From a virus: a DNA stretch of 15,783 nucleotides. The DNA lies in the IMG/VR virus record IMGVR_UViG_3300009666_000002. One strand, 5' to 3'. This document shows, in pieces, positions 1,472-12,507 of this stretch; position 1 is the stretch's first letter; the number at the start of each line of letters is the position of its first letter. The position numbers and the translations under genes are program-made. The notes beneath the pieces were generated by a model. The model did not search any database and was not told the DNA's origin. It saw only the letters and a program-made list of their open reading frames with translations.

Positions 1472-1897
1472 TTACTGTGGAAGGGCGTTCGCGGCTCTAG
1501 TCAAATGCCCTGATCCACTTGTAATATACTGGCTTGCCAAAGTAATCTTGTCAGCATCCATCTCATCTACACCCATATAGCCATACAAACCCGCGTTTGC
1601 AAAATCATCCAGTGCGTAGCCAAATTCTTGTTTGGACGTTCTGAATGCATATGAAACGGAGCATTCATCATTCAATTTTTTCGCTTCGGTTGCATGACCA
1701 TACAAGGCTGCAAATCCGTCACTCAATGCATCAAAATCGAAGGCTTCTGATGCCGCAGTTATGTCTTCCATATCTTGGACCATAAACCCGGCGGCTACTG
1801 TGACAAGATTTATCCATTCTTGATCACCTTCCGATACTCCAAATGCAACTTGGCTTGCCAGACACAAACACAATATCGATGCGAGAACTATTTTCAA
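1472..1897 (-). CDS. Secreted protein of unknown function (Sec-type signal peptide); low-GC insert between portal and scaffold
   Basis: TTG start with GGAGGAG 5 nt upstream. The N-terminus MKIVLASILCLCLASQVAFG/VSEG has a charged n-region, a hydrophobic core and an A-x-G cleavage-like site. The mature part is acidic. GC content is visibly lower than in the flanking head genes. A T5 tract follows the stop codon directly. Confidence 0.7.
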   Translation of the reverse strand: MKIVLASILCLCLASQVAFGVSEGDQEWINLVTVAAGFMVQDMEDITAASEAFDFDALSDGFAALYGHATEAKKLNDECSVSYAFRTSKQEFGYALDDFANAGLYGYMGVDEMDADKITLASQYITSGSGHLTRAANALPQ

Positions 1898-1958: not shown

Positions 1959-3323
1959 TCAGAGGATGGGAGCCGAGCCCCCCTCCTCCTCTTCGATCCT
2001 CGCCACTTCGGCCTCCAGGTCCTCCTCGGATGCGTCGGGGTCCAGCCGGGCCAGGCTCCCTCTGGTTGAAGTCGCCCGCGCGCTACGTCTCGTTAGCTCC
2101 ACCTTTGCCGCTTCTACGGGGTCGACAGGAAGAGACGACCTCCACTCCAGGGAGACGTTGGTGAGGGCCTGAGATCCGCTCATCCGGGATGCAACCTCGA
2201 GCTCTGCAGTGGTCTTCAGGACCTCGACGAGCTTCGGCCTGATCCGGAGCCGGAGCCGGTTGACCTTCGCCAGCGTGGGGAGCATAAGGCGCTTGAGGGC
2301 GCTTCCCGACTCGGCCAGGCCGCTCTTAGTCTCACCGAAGGCAGCCGGGGACAGTTCGGCCATGACGTAGAGCTGAGAGAGAAGGGTCTCGATTTGGGTG
2401 AATGTGGCGCCCATCTGAGCATCCCACACCAGGATCTCGGGGTTCCGCTCGTCCTCGTTCAAGGCGATGTACTTCTCATCAGACGCCCACACGATCTCGC
2501 CCGTGATCGGATCTCGGACCCTGAGCCCCGACGGGCCACACATCCAGGGATCGGCGAAGGTGTCCAGGGTCCCCGAGACCTTGATCAGCCGCCGCTCGAT
2601 CTCCTCAACGATGTCGGAGACGTCTTTGAAGTCGTCCAGCCCGAAGACGCCGTCCCCTGCCTTCAGGTTGGAGAAGGGGAAGACCAGGAAGCCGGCCACC
2701 CCCGTCTCCTCCTCGGGCGTCAGGCTGGCGTATCTCGGGATGGTGGCCAGGTCGACGGGCTCTTTGATCTCTTTGCCGTCGGAAGTTAGCTCAAGGAGCC
2801 GGTGCTCTATCTTTCCGGGCTTGTGGATCTCCACCTTGACGTATCGGTCGTCGCCTTGTTTGACCTCCCAGGCCAGGGCATGAGCCGTGAAGGTTCCGGC
2901 GTCGTCGGGGTCCACTACCGGGAACCAGTGACGGGGATCTATCCGACTGATAACCCCACGCTTCCCATCCCATCGGGGTTTGAGGACCCCATCCCCGAAG
3001 GCGATCAGGTCGCTGAAGAGGTCGTAGACGAGGATCTCGAAGGCGTTATCGTCGGTGATCCGGTCCACCGTGGTCTGATCCACGGCCGTGATCTTCGGCG
3101 GGTTCCCCACAGCCAGGTCGCTGAAGAGGGTCATGATCCGCTTGAACCAGTTGACACGCATCTTGATGATCCGGGGGGCGTCGTCCTCGTTCAGTCCAGC
3201 GAAGACGAGATCGTGGTCTCCCTCCATTAGCAGCCGGTTCTTTGCATATCGAGCCAGCCGGTCTTTGTCTGGCGGCCACTTCTGGCCGGGCTTCAGAAAA
3301 TCTAACGTAGTGAATACGGTCAT
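1959..3323 (-). CDS. Portal protein
   Basis: 454 aa, immediately downstream of the large terminase with a 4-nt ATGA overlap. The N-terminus (KWPPDKDRLARYAKNRLLMEGDH) and acidic C-terminal tail are typical of SPP1-gp6-like portals. Size and position also fit. Confidence 0.8.
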   Translation of the reverse strand: MTVFTTLDFLKPGQKWPPDKDRLARYAKNRLLMEGDHDLVFAGLNEDDAPRIIKMRVNWFKRIMTLFSDLAVGNPPKITAVDQTTVDRITDDNAFEILVYDLFSDLIAFGDGVLKPRWDGKRGVISRIDPRHWFPVVDPDDAGTFTAHALAWEVKQGDDRYVKVEIHKPGKIEHRLLELTSDGKEIKEPVDLATIPRYASLTPEEETGVAGFLVFPFSNLKAGDGVFGLDDFKDVSDIVEEIERRLIKVSGTLDTFADPWMCGPSGLRVRDPITGEIVWASDEKYIALNEDERNPEILVWDAQMGATFTQIETLLSQLYVMAELSPAAFGETKSGLAESGSALKRLMLPTLAKVNRLRLRIRPKLVEVLKTTAELEVASRMSGSQALTNVSLEWRSSLPVDPVEAAKVELTRRSARATSTRGSLARLDPDASEEDLEAEVARIEEEEGGSAPIL

Positions 3324-4534
3324 CTTGAAGGCCTCCTAAAATCGGTAACACGGCGGCTCTTGCTGATCCTGTTAACCAGGTAGCGAAGGGTGTCGACGAG
3401 GTCGTCGTCTTCTTTGATGGGGGCGTCCTCTCCCCGCTCGGTGGCTTTGGGGTCCCATCGGTAGCCCTCCAGCTCCTCCTGGAGCATCTCGGTCGACGGG
3501 CCGACGAGGTAGAGCCATCCCTGGTCGAAGGCGTTGATCACCTTCTGGATCCCGTTGAGAACGTCGTTATCGGCCTGCTGGACGCCCTCGATTCCATCCC
3601 CCACAAACTGGAGCCGGTGAGCCTTCGCCGCCGGGTCGACGTCGATCGATGTCGGATACATCCCAGCCAGGAATTTCTTCAGGTCCTTCGAGACCTCAGC
3701 CGGGGACTTGTCGGCCTTCCGGTACTCTCCAGCGATGTACCACTTATCGGCGATCCGGAAGCCTTTCAGCATCGCCGTGGGGTGAGTGGCTCCAGGATCC
3801 ACAGCGACTCTCATCTCCTCAATCCGGCCGTCGGGGAGGCGGGGGATGCAGTGAATATCCCGGTTGAAGTTTCGGTAAACGGCGCCCTCAGCAGCCACCC
3901 ACAGGCCATCGATGTACCTCTGATAGAAGAGAGATCCTCGAGGCCCGAACTGGCGCTTCAGCTCGGCGACGTACAGGGGGTCCAGCCAGGGGTTATCCTC
4001 CAGCTCGAAATGCCAGGTCTTGAGATCCAGCTCGTCCTCCCGGTCGATCCATTTCTTCTTTAGATAATGAGCCGGCGGGCCCGGATTCGTCGTGAGGAAG
4101 AGCTGAGAGCCCGGCTCGGAGAGACGAGAGATCAGCATGTTGAAGAAGCTCTCAGGTGTTAGGCTCCCCTCATCGACCAGGGCACCGCCGAGGGTGAGGC
4201 CTGCGATCTTCGTGAAGGCGCTCTCGTCGTTGGCTCCCTCACAAAGGATATGCCGCCCGTATATGGTGGCGACCTTGAGGGACCGCCGGTACTCGAAGTT
4301 TTGAGGGCCTACCAGGGAGGCGATAGGCAGAAGGACGTTCCTCTCCAGGCTCGTGAGGGTCTTCCCGGTCATCAGCAGGTTGACCCCGGCCGGAGCCTCG
4401 AGGACGGCCCGGAGCCACCGGACGTTAGCCCCGACGGTCTTCGCCGATCTGACAGCGCCGTGGAGAATGTTCACCCTTGCATCGGAACCGAGGCAGAAGT
4501 CCCGCTGCTTTCCGGTGGGAACCTGGAAGCTCAA
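3320..4534 (-). CDS. terL: Terminase large subunit (PBSX/terminase_6-like)
   Basis: 404 aa. It has a Walker A-like GAVRSAKT, a Walker B-like ALVDEGS, and a C-terminal RNase-H-like nuclease region (VAVDPGATHPTA ... DDLVDTLRY). It overlaps the small-subunit gene by 4 nt. Confidence 0.88.
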   Translation of the reverse strand: MSFQVPTGKQRDFCLGSDARVNILHGAVRSAKTVGANVRWLRAVLEAPAGVNLLMTGKTLTSLERNVLLPIASLVGPQNFEYRRSLKVATIYGRHILCEGANDESAFTKIAGLTLGGALVDEGSLTPESFFNMLISRLSEPGSQLFLTTNPGPPAHYLKKKWIDREDELDLKTWHFELEDNPWLDPLYVAELKRQFGPRGSLFYQRYIDGLWVAAEGAVYRNFNRDIHCIPRLPDGRIEEMRVAVDPGATHPTAMLKGFRIADKWYIAGEYRKADKSPAEVSKDLKKFLAGMYPTSIDVDPAAKAHRLQFVGDGIEGVQQADNDVLNGIQKVINAFDQGWLYLVGPSTEMLQEELEGYRWDPKATERGEDAPIKEDDDLVDTLRYLVNRISKSRRVTDFRRPSR

Positions 4535-4944
4535 GTCTCCGCCTCCTCGCCCATCTTCTCAAACAATATGCGGATCTCTCCGCCCTTCGCCGATGGGTCG
4601 GTGGACTCTTCCAGCCGCCGCTTATCGATGCCGATCGCAAAGCCGGTCATCAGATATTGAAAATCGCGGGGGTTATCGCAGGCTTTCAGAAGCTCTCGGC
4701 CTTTGTTCAGGGCCTCGCCGATCAGTTTGATCCTGTCTTCGGAGGCGTAACAGGACTTGATAAGAGCGGCCCTTTTTGTGGTGGAACGTTCCCCTAGATC
4801 CAGGCCGTTCCTGGAAGCGATCCGGGATATCGTTCCCGTCCCTCTCTGAAACTCTTCGGCCACGTCCCGGACGGACCGGCCCGCCTTCAGGGCTTCCAGT
4901 ATCTCGGCCTCTTCATCTTCGAATACGGGACCGCCTTTGCTCAT
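4531..4944 (-). CDS. terS: Terminase small subunit candidate (N-terminal helix-turn-helix)
   Basis: 137 aa, translationally coupled to terL. It has an HTH-like segment (RSVRDVAEEFQRGTGTISRIASRNG). The call rests mainly on position and size. Confidence 0.6.
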   Translation of the reverse strand: MSKGGPVFEDEEAEILEALKAGRSVRDVAEEFQRGTGTISRIASRNGLDLGERSTTKRAALIKSCYASEDRIKLIGEALNKGRELLKACDNPRDFQYLMTGFAIGIDKRRLEESTDPSAKGGEIRILFEKMGEEAET

Positions 4945-8805: not shown

Positions 8806-9091
8806 GATTGTTCCCCCCCTGGACCTGTGTCGTCTTACCCCTCCACTCCTACAAAAACGACGCCCTCGCCGCTCAAAATTCCCGCCAAAAAACCGCTATC
8901 GTGCGCCTTTGCTGCGAGAGACCCCCTCGGATAAGCCCAAACTCGATCCATTTACCCATACCTTTGCGCGACGGATCACGAAGATTCCCATAGTGTGTAG
9001 AACAAGTGCAATCATCGAGTAAACTCATCTGGTTTAGGAGACTGTAAAAAAGATAGGGGAGTTTTTAGACAATCACAGTGTAAAGTATTGC

Positions 9092-9313
9092 TTAATCTCT
9101 CATGATTGCCTTGAGGAGATCTATTCGGGCTTTCTGTGTTTCGAAAAGAATTCTCCACTTTACGTGAGTTAAGCTATTATCGCTCGCAGGTATAGTCTCT
9201 TTCCAGTTTGCGGCGTACTCTTGGAGCTTCAAGTCGATGTCTGTTGCTATTTCTAAAGCCCACGTTTCGCGAAGCGACTGAAATGTCTCATTTAATTCAT
9301 CCAAGTTGCTCAT
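9092..9313 (-). CDS. Small hypothetical protein (73 aa from the ATG at 9313; the track ORF extends to a TTG at 9352), low GC
   Basis: MSNLDELNETFQSLRETWALEIA..., predicted helical. TTTAAATA (9333..9340) lies 19 nt upstream of this ATG. No family recognised. Confidence 0.5.
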   Translation of the reverse strand: MSNLDELNETFQSLRETWALEIATDIDLKLQEYAANWKETIPASDNSLTHVKWRILFETQKARIDLLKAIMRD

Positions 9314-9332
9314 AAGATAACATTCTCCTGTA

Positions 9333-9340
9333 TATTTAAA
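9333..9340 (-). promoter_or_regulatory. Archaeal-type TATA box (TTTAAATA) upstream of the 73-aa ORF
   Basis: Exact consensus octamer. The 19-nt spacing to the ATG is slightly short for a strictly leaderless transcript. Confidence 0.4.
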
Positions 9341-9560
9341 TAGATTACTCAAACAAGAACGTGAAAGGCAATCGCTTGTTCTCCGATCAATTCACCAAGC
9401 ACGACGCTATCTCAGAAGCCGCTAAAATCGAGCGCTGAACGCAAACTGATTATTTTATATAATCTCTGTAATCATCATTATAACGCGTATATATTTAATA
9501 ATGTATTTAGAATACTAAAATTGATAGAATATAAATAGGCGAAAGCTATTTAATCGTTAC

Positions 9561-9587
9561 ATGTACCATGGTATATGTACGATGGTA
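9561..9587. repeat. Tandem 13-bp direct repeat ATGTAC(C/G)ATGGTA x2, containing the palindrome TACCATGGTA, at the edge of an AT-rich non-coding tract
   Basis: The sequence reads atgtaccatggta t atgtacgatggta. It lies in the 320-bp ORF-free region 9353..9671. Confidence 0.7.
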
Positions 9588-9671
9588 CCGTGGTGAGTAA
9601 AGCCTTCTCGAAAAGGATGAGGCCGCCTATGGGCGGGTGGGACGAAGTAAAGAAGGGTTCACCATGAGCAC

Positions 9672-10274
9672 TTATTTATTTTCGAAGATATAATCAATTG
9701 TTACAGCAAAACACGACTCTATCTTTTGATAGTGGATACTATCTCCACGATATTTTTGAGTTATTGTCCCTGCAATAAAGTCAGCTGCTTGGATGCACGG
9801 ATATTGCCTAGAATCAAGCGGCTCCAGTTTTAATGAGCACCTGTCCAATTTTTGTCCAAGGACGTCTTCATCTATCGTATACATGGACTTATCGGGGCAA
9901 ACGTTCACAGTTCCGTTTAGATTACAGTTTATAATTATTTCAAATAATAGTTTTTTAAACATGTGATCGTGTATGTGTTGTGCGCTATCGTTTATCGTCA
10001 AACTGGATTTACGTTTATGCAGTATTATATAGGCTAAATTGCTATCTGTTTTCGCGATGCATTCAAGAATACGCCTTTTGATCGCATCATTCGAGTTGTT
10101 AAATTTCAGTTCAGAAGTCTGTTTATATTTTTTAGATAATCTATTCATTCTAATACGTTTAATGCATTTATCAATCGCAGACGAGTCTTTTGTTATGATC
10201 GCAGCCAACACAAAAAAGTCGGATGCGTTTTGGCCGAATCCTAAATCACCAGACTCATCGATATAAACATCCAT
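9672..10274 (-). CDS. DUF3800-like protein (function unknown), low-GC cargo gene
   Basis: The N-terminal MDVYIDESGDLGF and C-terminal SRQYPCIQAADFIAGTI match my recollection of the DUF3800 signature (N-terminal DESG, C-terminal Q-x-AD). GC content is far below the core genes. GGGGG lies 6 nt upstream of the ATG. Confidence 0.6.
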   Translation of the reverse strand: MDVYIDESGDLGFGQNASDFFVLAAIITKDSSAIDKCIKRIRMNRLSKKYKQTSELKFNNSNDAIKRRILECIAKTDSNLAYIILHKRKSSLTINDSAQHIHDHMFKKLLFEIIINCNLNGTVNVCPDKSMYTIDEDVLGQKLDRCSLKLEPLDSRQYPCIQAADFIAGTITQKYRGDSIHYQKIESCFAVTIDYIFENK

Positions 10275-10308
10275 TTTTTTCCCCCGGAAAGTTATTTACA
10301 GCATCAAA

Positions 10309-10335
10309 GCAGAAAGGTCTATTAGACCTTTCTGC
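10309..10335 (-). terminator. Perfect 27-bp palindrome/hairpin right after the stop of 10337..10732; terminator or attenuator before the DUF3800 gene (a protein binding site is also possible)
   Basis: GCAGAAAGGTCTA-t-TAGACCTTTCTGC, followed on the minus strand by TTTG. Confidence 0.5.
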
Positions 10336-10336
10336 A

Positions 10337-10732
10337 TTAGCGAAGCTCAAGCGCCTCTGCCTTCAGCTTTCGGGCTCTCGCCGTGGCTGCCTCTCGGGTC
10401 ATCTTTCGAGGAGAGCCGATGTACTTGTTAACGACCTTGTCCCCCGCCTTCCAAGATGCGAAAAAGTACTCATAGGTCTTCGGCCCCTTCGCGGTGATCT
10501 TCTCCACCTGGCCGAGGTATACCGTCAACGCCTCCAGCCGCGCCGCATCCCACAGAGCCTCAGCCTCGCCCCCCAGCCTGGCCGCCTCCGCCTCTCTCTC
10601 CCTCGCCGCCGGTTCCAGCCCCCTGATAGCCCGGAGCTTTGCCGCCTCGTCTCGCAGCTTCCGGGCCTCCTCTCTCAAGGCCTTGATCTCCTCCCCGCTT
10701 GTGGTTTCGTAAACGATCTTCTGCCTCGCCAT
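10337..10732 (-). CDS. Hypothetical coiled-coil protein with a C-terminal Y-x-Y-F-x-A-S-W-K-x-G-x-K-V-x-x-K-Y-I-G motif
   Basis: 131 aa. The N-terminal half is charged and Ala/Arg/Glu-rich. The C-terminal segment is KTYEYFFASWKAGDKVVNKYIGS. High GC. It is divergent from the plus-strand wHTH gene. TTTATATG lies 23 nt upstream of the ATG. Confidence 0.55.
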   Translation of the reverse strand: MARQKIVYETTSGEEIKALREEARKLRDEAAKLRAIRGLEPAAREREAEAARLGGEAEALWDAARLEALTVYLGQVEKITAKGPKTYEYFFASWKAGDKVVNKYIGSPRKMTREAATARARKLKAEALELR

Positions 10733-10740
10733 GTAATATA

Positions 10741-10786
10741 GTTATGTGACTATCCCATATAAATTTAGTGGCGAGAGTCACATAAC
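10741..10786. promoter_or_regulatory. 11-bp perfect inverted repeat (GTTATGTGACT / AGTCACATAAC) enclosing the TATA box (10756..10763) of the 131-aa gene; putative operator in a divergent promoter region
   Basis: The arms are at 10741..10751 and 10776..10786. The 24-bp spacer contains catataaattt (TTTATATG on the minus strand). Confidence 0.6.
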
Positions 10787-11737: not shown

Positions 11738-12448
11738 TCACCCAACATTTTGTATTATCTTTCCTACACCATTAATCAAATCGAGAACTTCTTCTTCGGT
11801 TGGATCACGAGCTTTTTTATGATCACACAAATTTCGTATATCAGCCAATTTTTGTATTTCCCTCCAAGTTGGAATGTCGTACACACTATGTGCTCTAAGT
11901 GGCTCGTTTAAATCTGCGATGGTTGGGTCTTTTTTAGAAATAGGAATACAACGATTGGCTGCTACTTGTTGGAGGTGGCTTTCAAGCACTACTGCAGCCA
12001 CGGTTCCAGCTGCTCTTAAATGCCCGTTTTTATGTAGATGCATAGCGGCATCAAGCTCCGAATTAAAAAGATCTGCTTGTAGAATATCTTTAATTTTAGC
12101 TAGCGTATCATCTAAAGTATCTGCTGAGGATGATAATATTTTTATTTGAACCAAAAAATTTATTGTAATATTTAGATTTGCGGAAGGCGTTATTTTAATA
12201 GTGGCTGGCTCCGGCAACCTTTCGCAGAGTCTTTCGATGGTATGGTATCGCCGTTCAAAATCCTCGGCGCGATGTGGAATTAGTTGTTTAATAACCAAAA
12301 ACGATCTTGTGTACCAACTCTCGTATTCGAACATGAAATTTAAATGGTCTTTCAAATCATCCTCACTTTTTAAATACTCCTGTAGTTTTATACCATCTGA
12401 TATTAGTTCATTCAAACCTTCTCTTATTTCTAGATAATTGTTTCTCAT
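11738..12448 (-). CDS. HEPN-domain protein candidate (C-terminal R-N-x3-H motif), low-GC cargo gene
   Basis: The C-terminal region ELDAAMHLHKNGHLRAAGTVAAVVLESHLQQV ... REIQKLADIRNLCDHKK fits the HEPN helix pattern and the Rx4-6H motif with N after R. The N-terminal ~130 aa are helical and of unknown family. The track ORF starts at a TTG (12466); the ATG at 12448 (MRNNYLEI) is more likely. Confidence 0.55.
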   Translation of the reverse strand: MRNNYLEIREGLNELISDGIKLQEYLKSEDDLKDHLNFMFEYESWYTRSFLVIKQLIPHRAEDFERRYHTIERLCERLPEPATIKITPSANLNITINFLVQIKILSSSADTLDDTLAKIKDILQADLFNSELDAAMHLHKNGHLRAAGTVAAVVLESHLQQVAANRCIPISKKDPTIADLNEPLRAHSVYDIPTWREIQKLADIRNLCDHKKARDPTEEEVLDLINGVGKIIQNVG

Positions 12449-12507
12449 AATAATTACGTTAATCAATCTAGAATGCTATAAGTTTTCCGGGTTCTAATGT
12501 AGTTTAT

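Follow-up and report, generated by a model that had tools for sequence, protein, structure and literature searches.

The window analysed here, i.e. the whole stretch of 15,783 nucleotides (nt) held as IMG/VR virus record IMGVR_UViG_3300009666_000002, represents a complete circular genome with a unique length of 15,690 bp, as 93 nt at its start are identical to 93 nt at its end. Circular permutations of this virus-like element are contained in six metagenome contigs with 99.8-100% identity, two of which we take to be anaerobic-digester entries of the Joint Genome Institute (JGI). Between a 73-amino-acid (73-aa) open reading frame (ORF) and the gene for a 131-aa switch protein, the element carries a gene of the DUF3800 family and, on the opposite strand, a copy of the structured DUF3800-X RNA. 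We are nearly certain that the protein and the RNA constitute a compact two-part module. A toxin-antitoxin-like mode of action is proposed for this module below; taken as a whole, i.e. the module together with this mechanism, the explanation is tentative and falls somewhat short of an even chance.

The DUF3800 gene and the DUF3800-X RNA

The features of the module itself are the following, with BRE denoting a transcription factor B recognition element:

9672-10274, minus strand: DUF3800 gene, 200 aa (Pfam PF12686, PADLOC PDC-M04A, phrog_9243, AlphaFold/Foldseek)
9591-9664, plus strand: DUF3800-X RNA (Rfam RF02984 and our own covariance model R1)
9540-9555, plus strand: BRE-like CGAAAG and TATA-like CTATTTAATC, the predicted archaeal promoter of the RNA (comparison with other loci)
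9561-9587, plus strand: 14-nt tandem duplication ATGTACCATGGTAT / ATGTACGATGGTA (Tandem Repeats Finder: period 14, 1.9 copies, 92% matches)
9672-9682, plus strand: T-rich tract TTATTTATTTT, the complement of the last DUF3800 codons (E-N-K-stop)

The family assignment of the 200-aa protein, which the first-pass annotation of this DNA had made from the signatures YIDESGD and IQAAD, is borne out by a Pfam search (59.5 bits against a cut-off of 21, E 7.8e-16), in which residues 3-173 cover profile positions 2-148 of 149. Both signatures are present, YIDESGD from residue 4 with the pair D6-E7 and IQAAD from residue 161 with Q162 and D165. The protein further matches component A of the PADLOC system PDC-M04 (PDC-M04A, E 6.3e-10) and two PHROGs of unknown function, among them phrog_9243 at 2.5e-13; no family besides DUF3800 and PDC-M04A was returned by Pfam and PADLOC. 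Homologous proteins are at most 43-49% identical, and their named sources are metagenome-assembled genomes (MAGs) of methanogens. Among 27 homologues, no substitution occurs at D6, S8, G9, E55, K57, S155 and D165, while E7, D128 and Q162 are almost invariant (E7 and Q162 being conserved in at least 90%). The window protein has retained all of these residues as well as D154, which is also listed among the conserved acidic positions. It departs from the family at P152 (codon 9816-9818), where at least 90% of the homologues have a histidine (LEPLDS versus IxHxDS), and this proline is the same in all six metagenome contigs.

An AlphaFold model computed from the 27 homologues (predicted local distance difference test, pLDDT, 88.4; predicted template modelling score, pTM, 0.88) resembles type 2 RNases H. 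The top 22 PDB matches in Foldseek are all RNase HII, H2 or HIII enzymes, with E values down to 3e-7 and template modelling (TM) scores of 0.55-0.60; 1eke is the best of them (E 3e-7, TM 0.60), others are 3p83, 3puf and 4py5, and the matches include the RNases HII of M. jannaschii and A. fulgidus, human RNase H2A and RNase HIII. The N-terminal motif of RNase HII is IDEAGRG, and its D-E pair on the first strand is also found in the DUF3800 protein (IDESG). In addition, the stretch LDSRQYPCIQAADFIAG resembles the motif ADSKYP..AASI.AK. At the level of sequence, the DUF3800 protein gave no match to RNase HII in PDB or Pfam, and a search of the PDB with the family profile returned no match. The nuclease-like site for which a structure prediction had been recommended is plausible on this model, in which the conserved acidic residues are kept. 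An assignment of DUF3800 to the RNase H fold is also found in the literature (PMC10910872, PMC7736814, PMC12669027), with the fourth acidic residue apparently provided by the QxxD helix in a "catalytic rearrangement" (PMC10910872). Unlike canonical RNase HII, which is a housekeeping enzyme, the DUF3800 gene is low in GC, patchily distributed, mobile and paired with an RNA.

What had been described as a 320-bp non-coding gap next to this gene proved to be 358 nt long (9314-9671) and to hold a full-length DUF3800-X RNA along with its promoter. In an Rfam scan of the whole window, RF02984 was the single strong match (75.1 bits against a gathering score of 38.2, E 1.8e-15, model positions 1-73 of 73), and retron RNA families gave no match; R1 scores the same RNA at 85.8 bits. 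The RNA of 74 nt lies on the strand opposite to the DUF3800 gene, with its 3' end 7 nt from the stop codon of the gene, and forms a three-stem rod with an internal loop of 13+13 nt, both strands of which, GAAAAGGAUGAGG and GUGGGACGAAGUA, are nearly invariant. In an alignment of 50 loci, 92.7% of the cells are paired, compared with 42-53% in slid controls; compensatory changes occur in 14 of the 19 pairs, and none of 500 shuffles was as good. Hence, the assignment to the Rfam family, as a full-length copy adjoining a DUF3800 gene, is joined by independent covariation that confirms the three stems. Moreover, 17 columns are invariant across Methanomicrobia, Methanobacteria and Archaeoglobi, most of them in unpaired segments of the internal loop. 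Since these bases are unpaired and nonetheless invariant, they would need a constraint beyond antisense pairing, most simply recognition by the DUF3800 protein. A kink-turn (K-turn) or C/D-box was considered for the internal loop and discarded, as neither fits the consensus when judged by eye.

In 38 of 49 loci, a purine-rich BRE and a TATA octamer (TTTATTAA, TTTATATA or TTTAAATA) lie 19-26 nt before the first paired base of stem P1, and the AT fraction amounts to 0.90-0.98 at -30 to -24 relative to this stem. The conserved spacing places the transcription start of the RNA at the base of P1. In the window, BRE and TATA are found 36 nt upstream of the RNA, which corresponds to 22 nt plus the 14-nt duplication; as the latter lies between TATA and RNA, the start is predicted near 9577 with a leader of about 14 nt, and this extra leader folds as a small hairpin of its own. 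The BRE/TATA motif conserved on the Rfam strand strongly favours this strand for the RNA, and a reading of the structure as an element in the 3' untranslated region (UTR) of the gene strand was rejected on the same ground. Comparison of the loci thus provides strong sequence evidence for a predicted independent transcription of the RNA on the Rfam strand. Its end is likely marked by the T-rich tract at 9672-9682, a predicted archaeal terminator with counterparts in the form of T3-T5 runs at the same place in other loci. Whereas members of RF02984 are known from cellular genomes, the present copy resides in a small virus-like element, and it is further marked by the duplication that lengthens the leader and by a partner gene that has lost its own TATA.

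Arrangement and mobility of the pair

For comparison, 79 genome loci and 45 viral loci were collected, and R1, which had been built from 50 RNA copies, was run on all of them. The related genome loci belong to Methanothrix, Methanomicrobiales, Methanoregula, Methanobacterium, Archaeoglobi and Thermoplasmata and are nearly all archaeal. The RNA was found in 67 of the 79 genome loci and in 7 further loci, and it directly follows the gene on the opposite strand in nearly all loci that bear it. In 38 of 49 loci, the distance between its 3' end and the stop codon is -6 to +16 nt; the ORFs of the remaining loci have lost this stop codon and continue through the RNA complement. This read-through accounts for an apparently conserved C-terminal tail, NCVVNPSLLRPxRLRAASSF, in several public proteins (gene calls P0002, P0003, P0005, P0006, P0008 and P0016; e.g. 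L131 8001-8798). As a practical point, several public DUF3800 annotations therefore carry a spurious tail from the RNA complement.

The arrangement also holds where the gene is present in several copies: in locus L063 (354-3429), which contains three DUF3800 paralogues, a separate convergent RNA accompanies each of the two on the opposite strand. In L037 (1426-1509), one RNA copy is an orphan with no adjoining gene, and in L080 (6001-6563) the gene is fragmented and shares its strand with the RNA, the only exception of this kind. The same convergent position immediately 3' of the gene is taken by two other RNA classes, namely DUF3800-IX in three IMG/VR viral contigs (L096 894-965, L097 8626-8697, L098 2267-2339) and DUF3800-III, with two copies, in an Anaerolineales MAG (L070 4515-5034). 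As judged from these comparisons, gene and RNA are inherited and moved as one unit, and their convergent geometry is fixed. This geometry keeps the strong RNA promoter from driving the protein gene and would make an overlap of the two transcripts almost unavoidable.

The overlap could by itself be the purpose of the arrangement. In that case, the RNA would regulate the gene purely in cis as an antisense transcript, as type I toxin-antitoxin systems do, by pairing with the 3' end of the mRNA or by collision of transcription, without functional contact to the protein. This would be in line with an RNA 3' end that reaches up to or across the stop codon at nearly every locus, with the equally convergent classes IX and III, and with the shortness of the T-tracts after the RNA, which makes read-through into the gene likely. 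However, pairing with a 3' UTR needs no fixed sequence, yet the loop bases are invariant and the stems covary; moreover, the orphan copy in L037 has no adjoining gene to regulate in cis. A purely antisense function is consequently regarded as improbable.

In a more elaborate role, the RNA could be indispensable to the nuclease as its cofactor, scaffold or specificity subunit and form an active ribonucleoprotein effector with it. The strict co-occurrence of gene and RNA, the invariant loop nucleotides within a covarying structure and the strong RNA promoter would be expected of such a complex. The family has further been described next to eleven structurally unrelated RNA motifs, which amounts to eleven RNA folds for a single protein family (Weinberg et al. 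2017, PMC5737381), and DUF3800 proteins partner nucleic-acid-guided systems, namely type VII retrons and Cas12a2/a3 (PMC7736814, PMC10910872, PMC13594972). What speaks against a guided effector is that the RNA comes without a variable guide-like segment, its flanks being the transcription start and the gene's own 3' end, and that a single-domain protein of 200 aa is small for a guided nuclease; in addition, a convergent geometry across three RNA classes would be needless for a cofactor. We consider this role unlikely, without regarding it as far-fetched. The reading favoured here, a structured RNA that restrains a nuclease, also has to be seen in light of how the pair is embedded in the element, for which the following features are relevant:

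9351-10349: inserted cassette with a GC content of about 0.37 (homology breakpoints with relatives)
9353-9539: AT-rich spacer with a GC content of about 0.35 and several TATA-like runs, between the promoters of the 73-aa ORF and of the RNA
10309-10335: perfect 27-bp palindrome GCAGAAAGGTCTA-T-TAGACCTTTCTGC, 13-nt arms and one central base
10281-10285, minus strand: GGGGG, Shine-Dalgarno-like, 6 nt upstream of the DUF3800 ATG (read from the sequence)
9092-9313, minus strand: 73-aa ORF, adjacent backbone gene (homologue and promoter in relative L141)
11738-12466, minus strand: gene of a 242-aa protein, GC 0.364 (model and motif only)

In a blastn comparison with the relative L141, homology extends over 10800-10350 and resumes at 9350-9311; the cassette interval is occupied in L141 by a 177-aa secreted-looking ORF. 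Neither DUF3800 nor the RNA was found in the relatives L138-L154, and the terminase, portal, primase and 131-aa proteins of such cassette-less relatives are 84-92% identical to those of the window. Within the cassette, similarity to other loci is confined to the gene and the RNA and does not extend to the spacer and the palindrome. The spacer at 9353-9539 resembles none of the loci compared, its Rfam matches do not rise above chance, and it may contain further promoters, act as an origin or simply fill space. A search of isolate phage genomes gave no DNA match to the cassette. A 16/20 direct repeat (9117-9136 / 10315-10334) was rejected as an insertion scar, as it is off the breakpoint at 9350 and within chance for 2 kb.

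These boundaries replace an island of 9092-10335, which had been thought to comprise the DUF3800 gene and the 73-aa ORF, separated by a non-coding gap and gated by the palindrome. Both ORFs are real and lower in GC than the core genes, and so is the palindrome a real feature; the gap, however, encodes an RNA with a 75-bit Rfam match, the palindrome is unique to this junction, and the 73-aa ORF occurs with its promoter in L141, which is without DUF3800, and never beside DUF3800 elsewhere. Its separate promoter was correctly recognised (TATA-like box at 9331-9341, about 23 nt upstream of the ATG), and it is the membership in the island that had to be given up: L141 has a 69-aa homologue with 43% identity and an 87.5% identical promoter stretch, which makes the ORF a backbone gene. 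As a partner of DUF3800 it was likewise dismissed, with tblastn hits in 0 of 130 DUF3800 loci; in a k-mer database search it finds only itself. Next to no credence can thus be given to the island as originally drawn.

On the other side of the divergent 183-aa/131-aa gene pair, the slot of the 242-aa gene is filled in the relative L138 (IMGVR_UViG_3300033161_000030) by a type II restriction enzyme and a methyltransferase (2720-4872; PADLOC 1e-62 and 1e-29). Together with the cassette-less relatives, this restriction-modification pair indicates that two swappable cargo slots flank the regulatory switch. The view that foreign cargo lies on both sides of the switch thus holds as far as the variability of the slots is concerned; it does not hold for low GC as a sign of foreign origin. 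The DUF3800 gene does have the lowest GC content of the 19 genes, as had been noted (0.355, followed by 0.364 for the 242-aa gene), but it is lower in GC than its surroundings in nearly all loci compared, so that this is a trait of the family and no specific evidence of foreignness here. The cellular contexts of DUF3800 and its RNA are varied, with OLD-like ATPase-TOPRIM, transposase, HNH and ParA genes nearby. For instance, in the Methanosarcinales archaeon Met12 (CP017966.2; L131 5935-8798), pheS and pheT are separated by DUF3800 and its RNA, preceded by an OLD-like AAA_15/AAA_21+TOPRIM gene. Homologues of the 131-aa switch protein (46% and 34% identity) are encoded in two IMG/VR contigs with DUF3800 and RNA (L087 5026-6305; L086 8001-8719 and 13271-13654). 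In L087, the homologue directly adjoins the cassette but is oriented differently, and a ParA gene borders the other side.

The perfect 27-bp palindrome, previously reported at the end of the 131-aa gene, lies 1 nt from the TAA stop of this gene; it has a chance expectation of about 2e-4 (own estimate, ~15.8 kb x 4^-13), and its half-site is present nowhere else in the window. In the 131-aa transcript, it would form a 12-bp hairpin followed by UUUG; the 96 nt around it fold at -27.9 kcal/mol (z -3.97), with none of 200 shuffles as good. As it is BRE/TATA-like on both strands (AGAAAG-G-TCTAATAG), it may also serve as a promoter or operator. It was dismissed as a family feature or repeated operator, given the unique half-site and its absence upstream of 31 homologous genes and after the 131-aa gene in relatives. 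Hence, the palindrome is specific to this junction and no part of the family's working.

Even so, it may affect the expression of the present copy. The lack of a well-placed TATA box, already pointed out in the first-pass annotation, is supported by comparison: the best octamer of the DUF3800 gene ends 18 nt from the ATG, versus a TATA at 19-29 nt before the start codon in 17 of 31 homologous loci, with an AT peak at -30 to -26. Judging from the sequences, the latter is the pattern of leaderless mRNAs. The GGGGG near the ATG fits a translation of DUF3800 as an internal gene of a longer transcript. With no well-placed TATA, this Shine-Dalgarno-like motif and a hairpin-forming palindrome upstream, expression by read-through past the hairpin is plausible, as the first-pass annotation had suggested. 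In comparison, the RNA promoter is nearer to consensus and better positioned, a pattern to be expected if the RNA must be in excess.

A proposed toxin-antitoxin-like mechanism

In the proposed mechanism, the module would act as a toxin-antitoxin or abortive-infection unit. The small, strongly promoted RNA would bind the nuclease via its invariant internal loop and thereby restrain it, and the convergent transcription, along with the antisense overlap with the 3' end of the mRNA, could add to this restraint. In the window, the production of the protein may be throttled further, as it is likely fed by read-through past the palindromic hairpin. If the supply of RNA drops, for example through loss of the element, host shut-off or a competing virus, the nuclease would be freed to cut RNA-containing duplexes, and replication would stop. 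For an element without integrase, this could result in a plasmid-like addiction or in the exclusion of rival viruses. The invariant loop and the geometry shared by three RNA classes fit an RNA that restrains a dangerous nuclease, and the defence-like mobile context (OLD-like ATPase-TOPRIM, transposase, HNH and ParA neighbours as well as the PDC-M04A match) is in favour of the proposal. That the RNA indeed acts by such restraint is possible and somewhat doubtful.

A number of observations weigh against this mechanism. The 14-nt duplication may weaken or change the RNA of the window, and wobble counts alone do not decide the RNA strand, with 25 G-U versus 21 A-C outside one column. Devoid of a near-invariant histidine, the protein could be altered or inactive. 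The orientation of DUF3800-I varies, with the RNA in either orientation on either side of the gene according to Weinberg et al. (PMC5737381), and antisense overlap can therefore not be universal; that paper puts forward no functional hypothesis. The literature searched yielded neither an experiment on a DUF3800-RNA pair nor a functional study of one. PDC-M04 is a candidate system of several genes, and none of the seven neighbouring proteins scanned matched its component B. Finally, transposon sequencing (Tn-seq) of Legionella pneumophila lists a DUF3800 gene as an essential accessory gene, alongside known antitoxins, and would thus have the protein behave as antitoxin rather than toxin.

The last point leads to a reversed polarity, in which the structured RNA would be the harmful or active component and DUF3800 would process or neutralise it. 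Besides the Legionella data, the stronger promoter of the RNA would agree with this assignment, as would the fact that nucleic-acid processing is common for RNase H-fold enzymes. The Tn-seq result is, however, one indirect observation on a distant bacterial homologue, and DUF3800 takes the effector position in retrons and CRISPR loci (PMC7736814, PMC12669027). Decayed loci (L080 and the second copy in L037) keep the RNA with the gene fragmented or missing, which is unlikely if the RNA is toxic. The probability of a reversed polarity is accordingly judged to be low.

The deviating histidine position touches upon another possibility, namely a counter-defence function in which the viral RNA, perhaps with an altered protein, neutralises DUF3800 modules of the host. 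Phages carry pseudo-ToxI, which would be a parallel. The RNA of the window is 93-95% identical to the copies of Methanothrix harundinacea and Methanocrinis, and the proteins share 44% identity; other loci with 42-46% protein identity show 74-85% RNA identity. Furthermore, the viral protein is unique in being without the near-invariant histidine, and the viral gene has lost its own promoter, with that of the RNA being kept. On the other hand, nothing interrupts the ORF, none of its acidic residues is lost, and its sequence is the same in the six metagenome contigs. High conservation is seen throughout the RNA family, and a faster evolution of the viral protein would explain the discrepancy equally well. 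A counter-defence function hence appears quite improbable.

Returning to restraint of a nuclease by its RNA, an analogy is offered by type III toxin-antitoxin systems (ToxIN, CptIN, TenpIN), in which a structured RNA checks an adjoining nuclease, on mobile elements and with a flavour of abortive infection. The layout differs: the type III RNA is a tandem array, upstream of and co-directional with the toxin gene, whereas DUF3800-X is a single copy, downstream and convergent, and the sole tandem repeat in 9000-10400 is the 14-nt duplication. Type III toxins are moreover of the ToxN/AbiQ type, in contrast to the RNase H-like model of the DUF3800 protein. Among type I toxin-antitoxin loci, txpA/RatA and bsrG/SR4 have a convergent antisense RNA that overlaps at the 3' end. 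The convergent 3' ends and the stronger RNA promoter are shared by the DUF3800/RNA pair; yet type I toxins are small hydrophobic membrane peptides, while the DUF3800 protein has 200 aa and is modelled as a globular alpha/beta domain, and the conservation of DUF3800-X goes far beyond the need of antisense pairing.

DUF3800 proteins also occur as effectors of type VII retrons, next to a reverse transcriptase and a non-coding RNA (Mestre et al. 2020, PMC7736814), and as TPR-DUF3800 accessory proteins of CRISPR systems (PMC10910872, PMC13594972, PMC12669027). In these systems, the same protein family is found around a non-coding nucleic acid, but the RNA partner differs from the one described here, and the Pfam lists of the element's genes contain no reverse transcriptase, no cas genes and no TPR domain. 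The retron clade of DUF3800 is without the glutamine of QxxD (PMC7736814), which the window protein has. Of the PADLOC candidate PDC-M04, both components are required; only A is matched by the DUF3800 protein, B is not, and no validation of the system was found in the literature searched. Taken together, the pair is not a type III or type I toxin-antitoxin system, a retron or a canonical RNase HII; by analogy, it may work like type I or type III toxin-antitoxin systems.

The association of protein and RNA itself is already known. What is new are the viral context, the evidence for swappable cargo, the quantified convergent architecture, the archaeal RNA promoter and the corrected boundaries of the island. 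Neither the convergent placement of the RNA at the stop codon nor its BRE/TATA promoter is described in the 2017 main text (PMC5737381), and the literature searched contains no proposal for a function or mechanism of the DUF3800-RNA pairing. Three constraints on such a function can now be given. First, in the comparison of 130 loci, the RNA is convergent and immediately 3' of the gene in class X and in the few IX and III loci scanned. Second, in archaea the RNA is preceded by a BRE/TATA promoter of its own, which is close to consensus and better positioned than the promoter of the gene. Third, the pair moves as a unit of about 1 kb into a cargo slot, the second slot holding restriction-modification in one relative. 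In combination, they lead to a testable toxin-antitoxin-like hypothesis. Complete protein-RNA pairs occur in archaeal as well as in bacterial viruses. That the pair represents an unrecognised RNA-protein class of toxin-antitoxin or abortive-infection systems, with a toxin of RNase HII fold and an RNA that binds it and is transcribed head-on, is rather unlikely. If true, a head-only archaeal mini-virus or satellite would use the pair for episome addiction or inter-virus warfare; in a bolder variant, the viral RNA would mimic the host RNA to disarm the DUF3800 modules of the host.

Further genes of the element

The window has an overall GC content of 0.531, and its minus strand carries nearly all of the 19 genes. 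According to Pfam and PHROGs, these include packaging and head genes for a large terminase, portal, scaffold, capsid, head-tail adaptor and an SPP1 gp7-like minor capsid protein, the capsid gene running across the window ends, as well as genes for a small helix-turn-helix (HTH) protein, a DUF3987 primase and several ribbon-helix-helix (RHH) or winged helix-turn-helix (wHTH) regulators. No tail genes and no integrase were seen among the genes of the window. A head-only mini-virus is one candidate identity for the 15.69-kb element, a capsid-forming satellite of a methanogen another; the nearest copies of its DUF3800 gene and RNA are those of methanogens. Between the portal and scaffold genes, a 141-aa protein with a signal-peptide-like N-terminus is encoded (1472-1897, minus strand, GC 0.44), which is conserved at 87% in the relative L143. 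A tRNA scan of the window was uninformative, as were scans for terminator and promoter consensus sequences, which were of bacterial type.

The 242-aa protein in the second cargo slot had been proposed to form a HEPN island. It has more than 260 homologues, none of them annotated, and no profile match was obtained in Pfam, NCBIfam, PADLOC or PHROGs. Its model (pLDDT 91.6), the C-terminal half of which resembles HEPN domains and HepT toxins, and the motif R211-x4-H216, invariant in 28 homologues, suggest a HEPN-like protein. The proposal is hence supported by predicted fold and the Rx4H motif and not by a profile hidden Markov model (HMM).

The region separating the divergent 131-aa and 183-aa genes contains an inverted repeat (GTTATGTGACT...AGTCACATAAC, 10741-10786) that flanks a TATA-like ATATAAATTT and is likely an operator of this switch.

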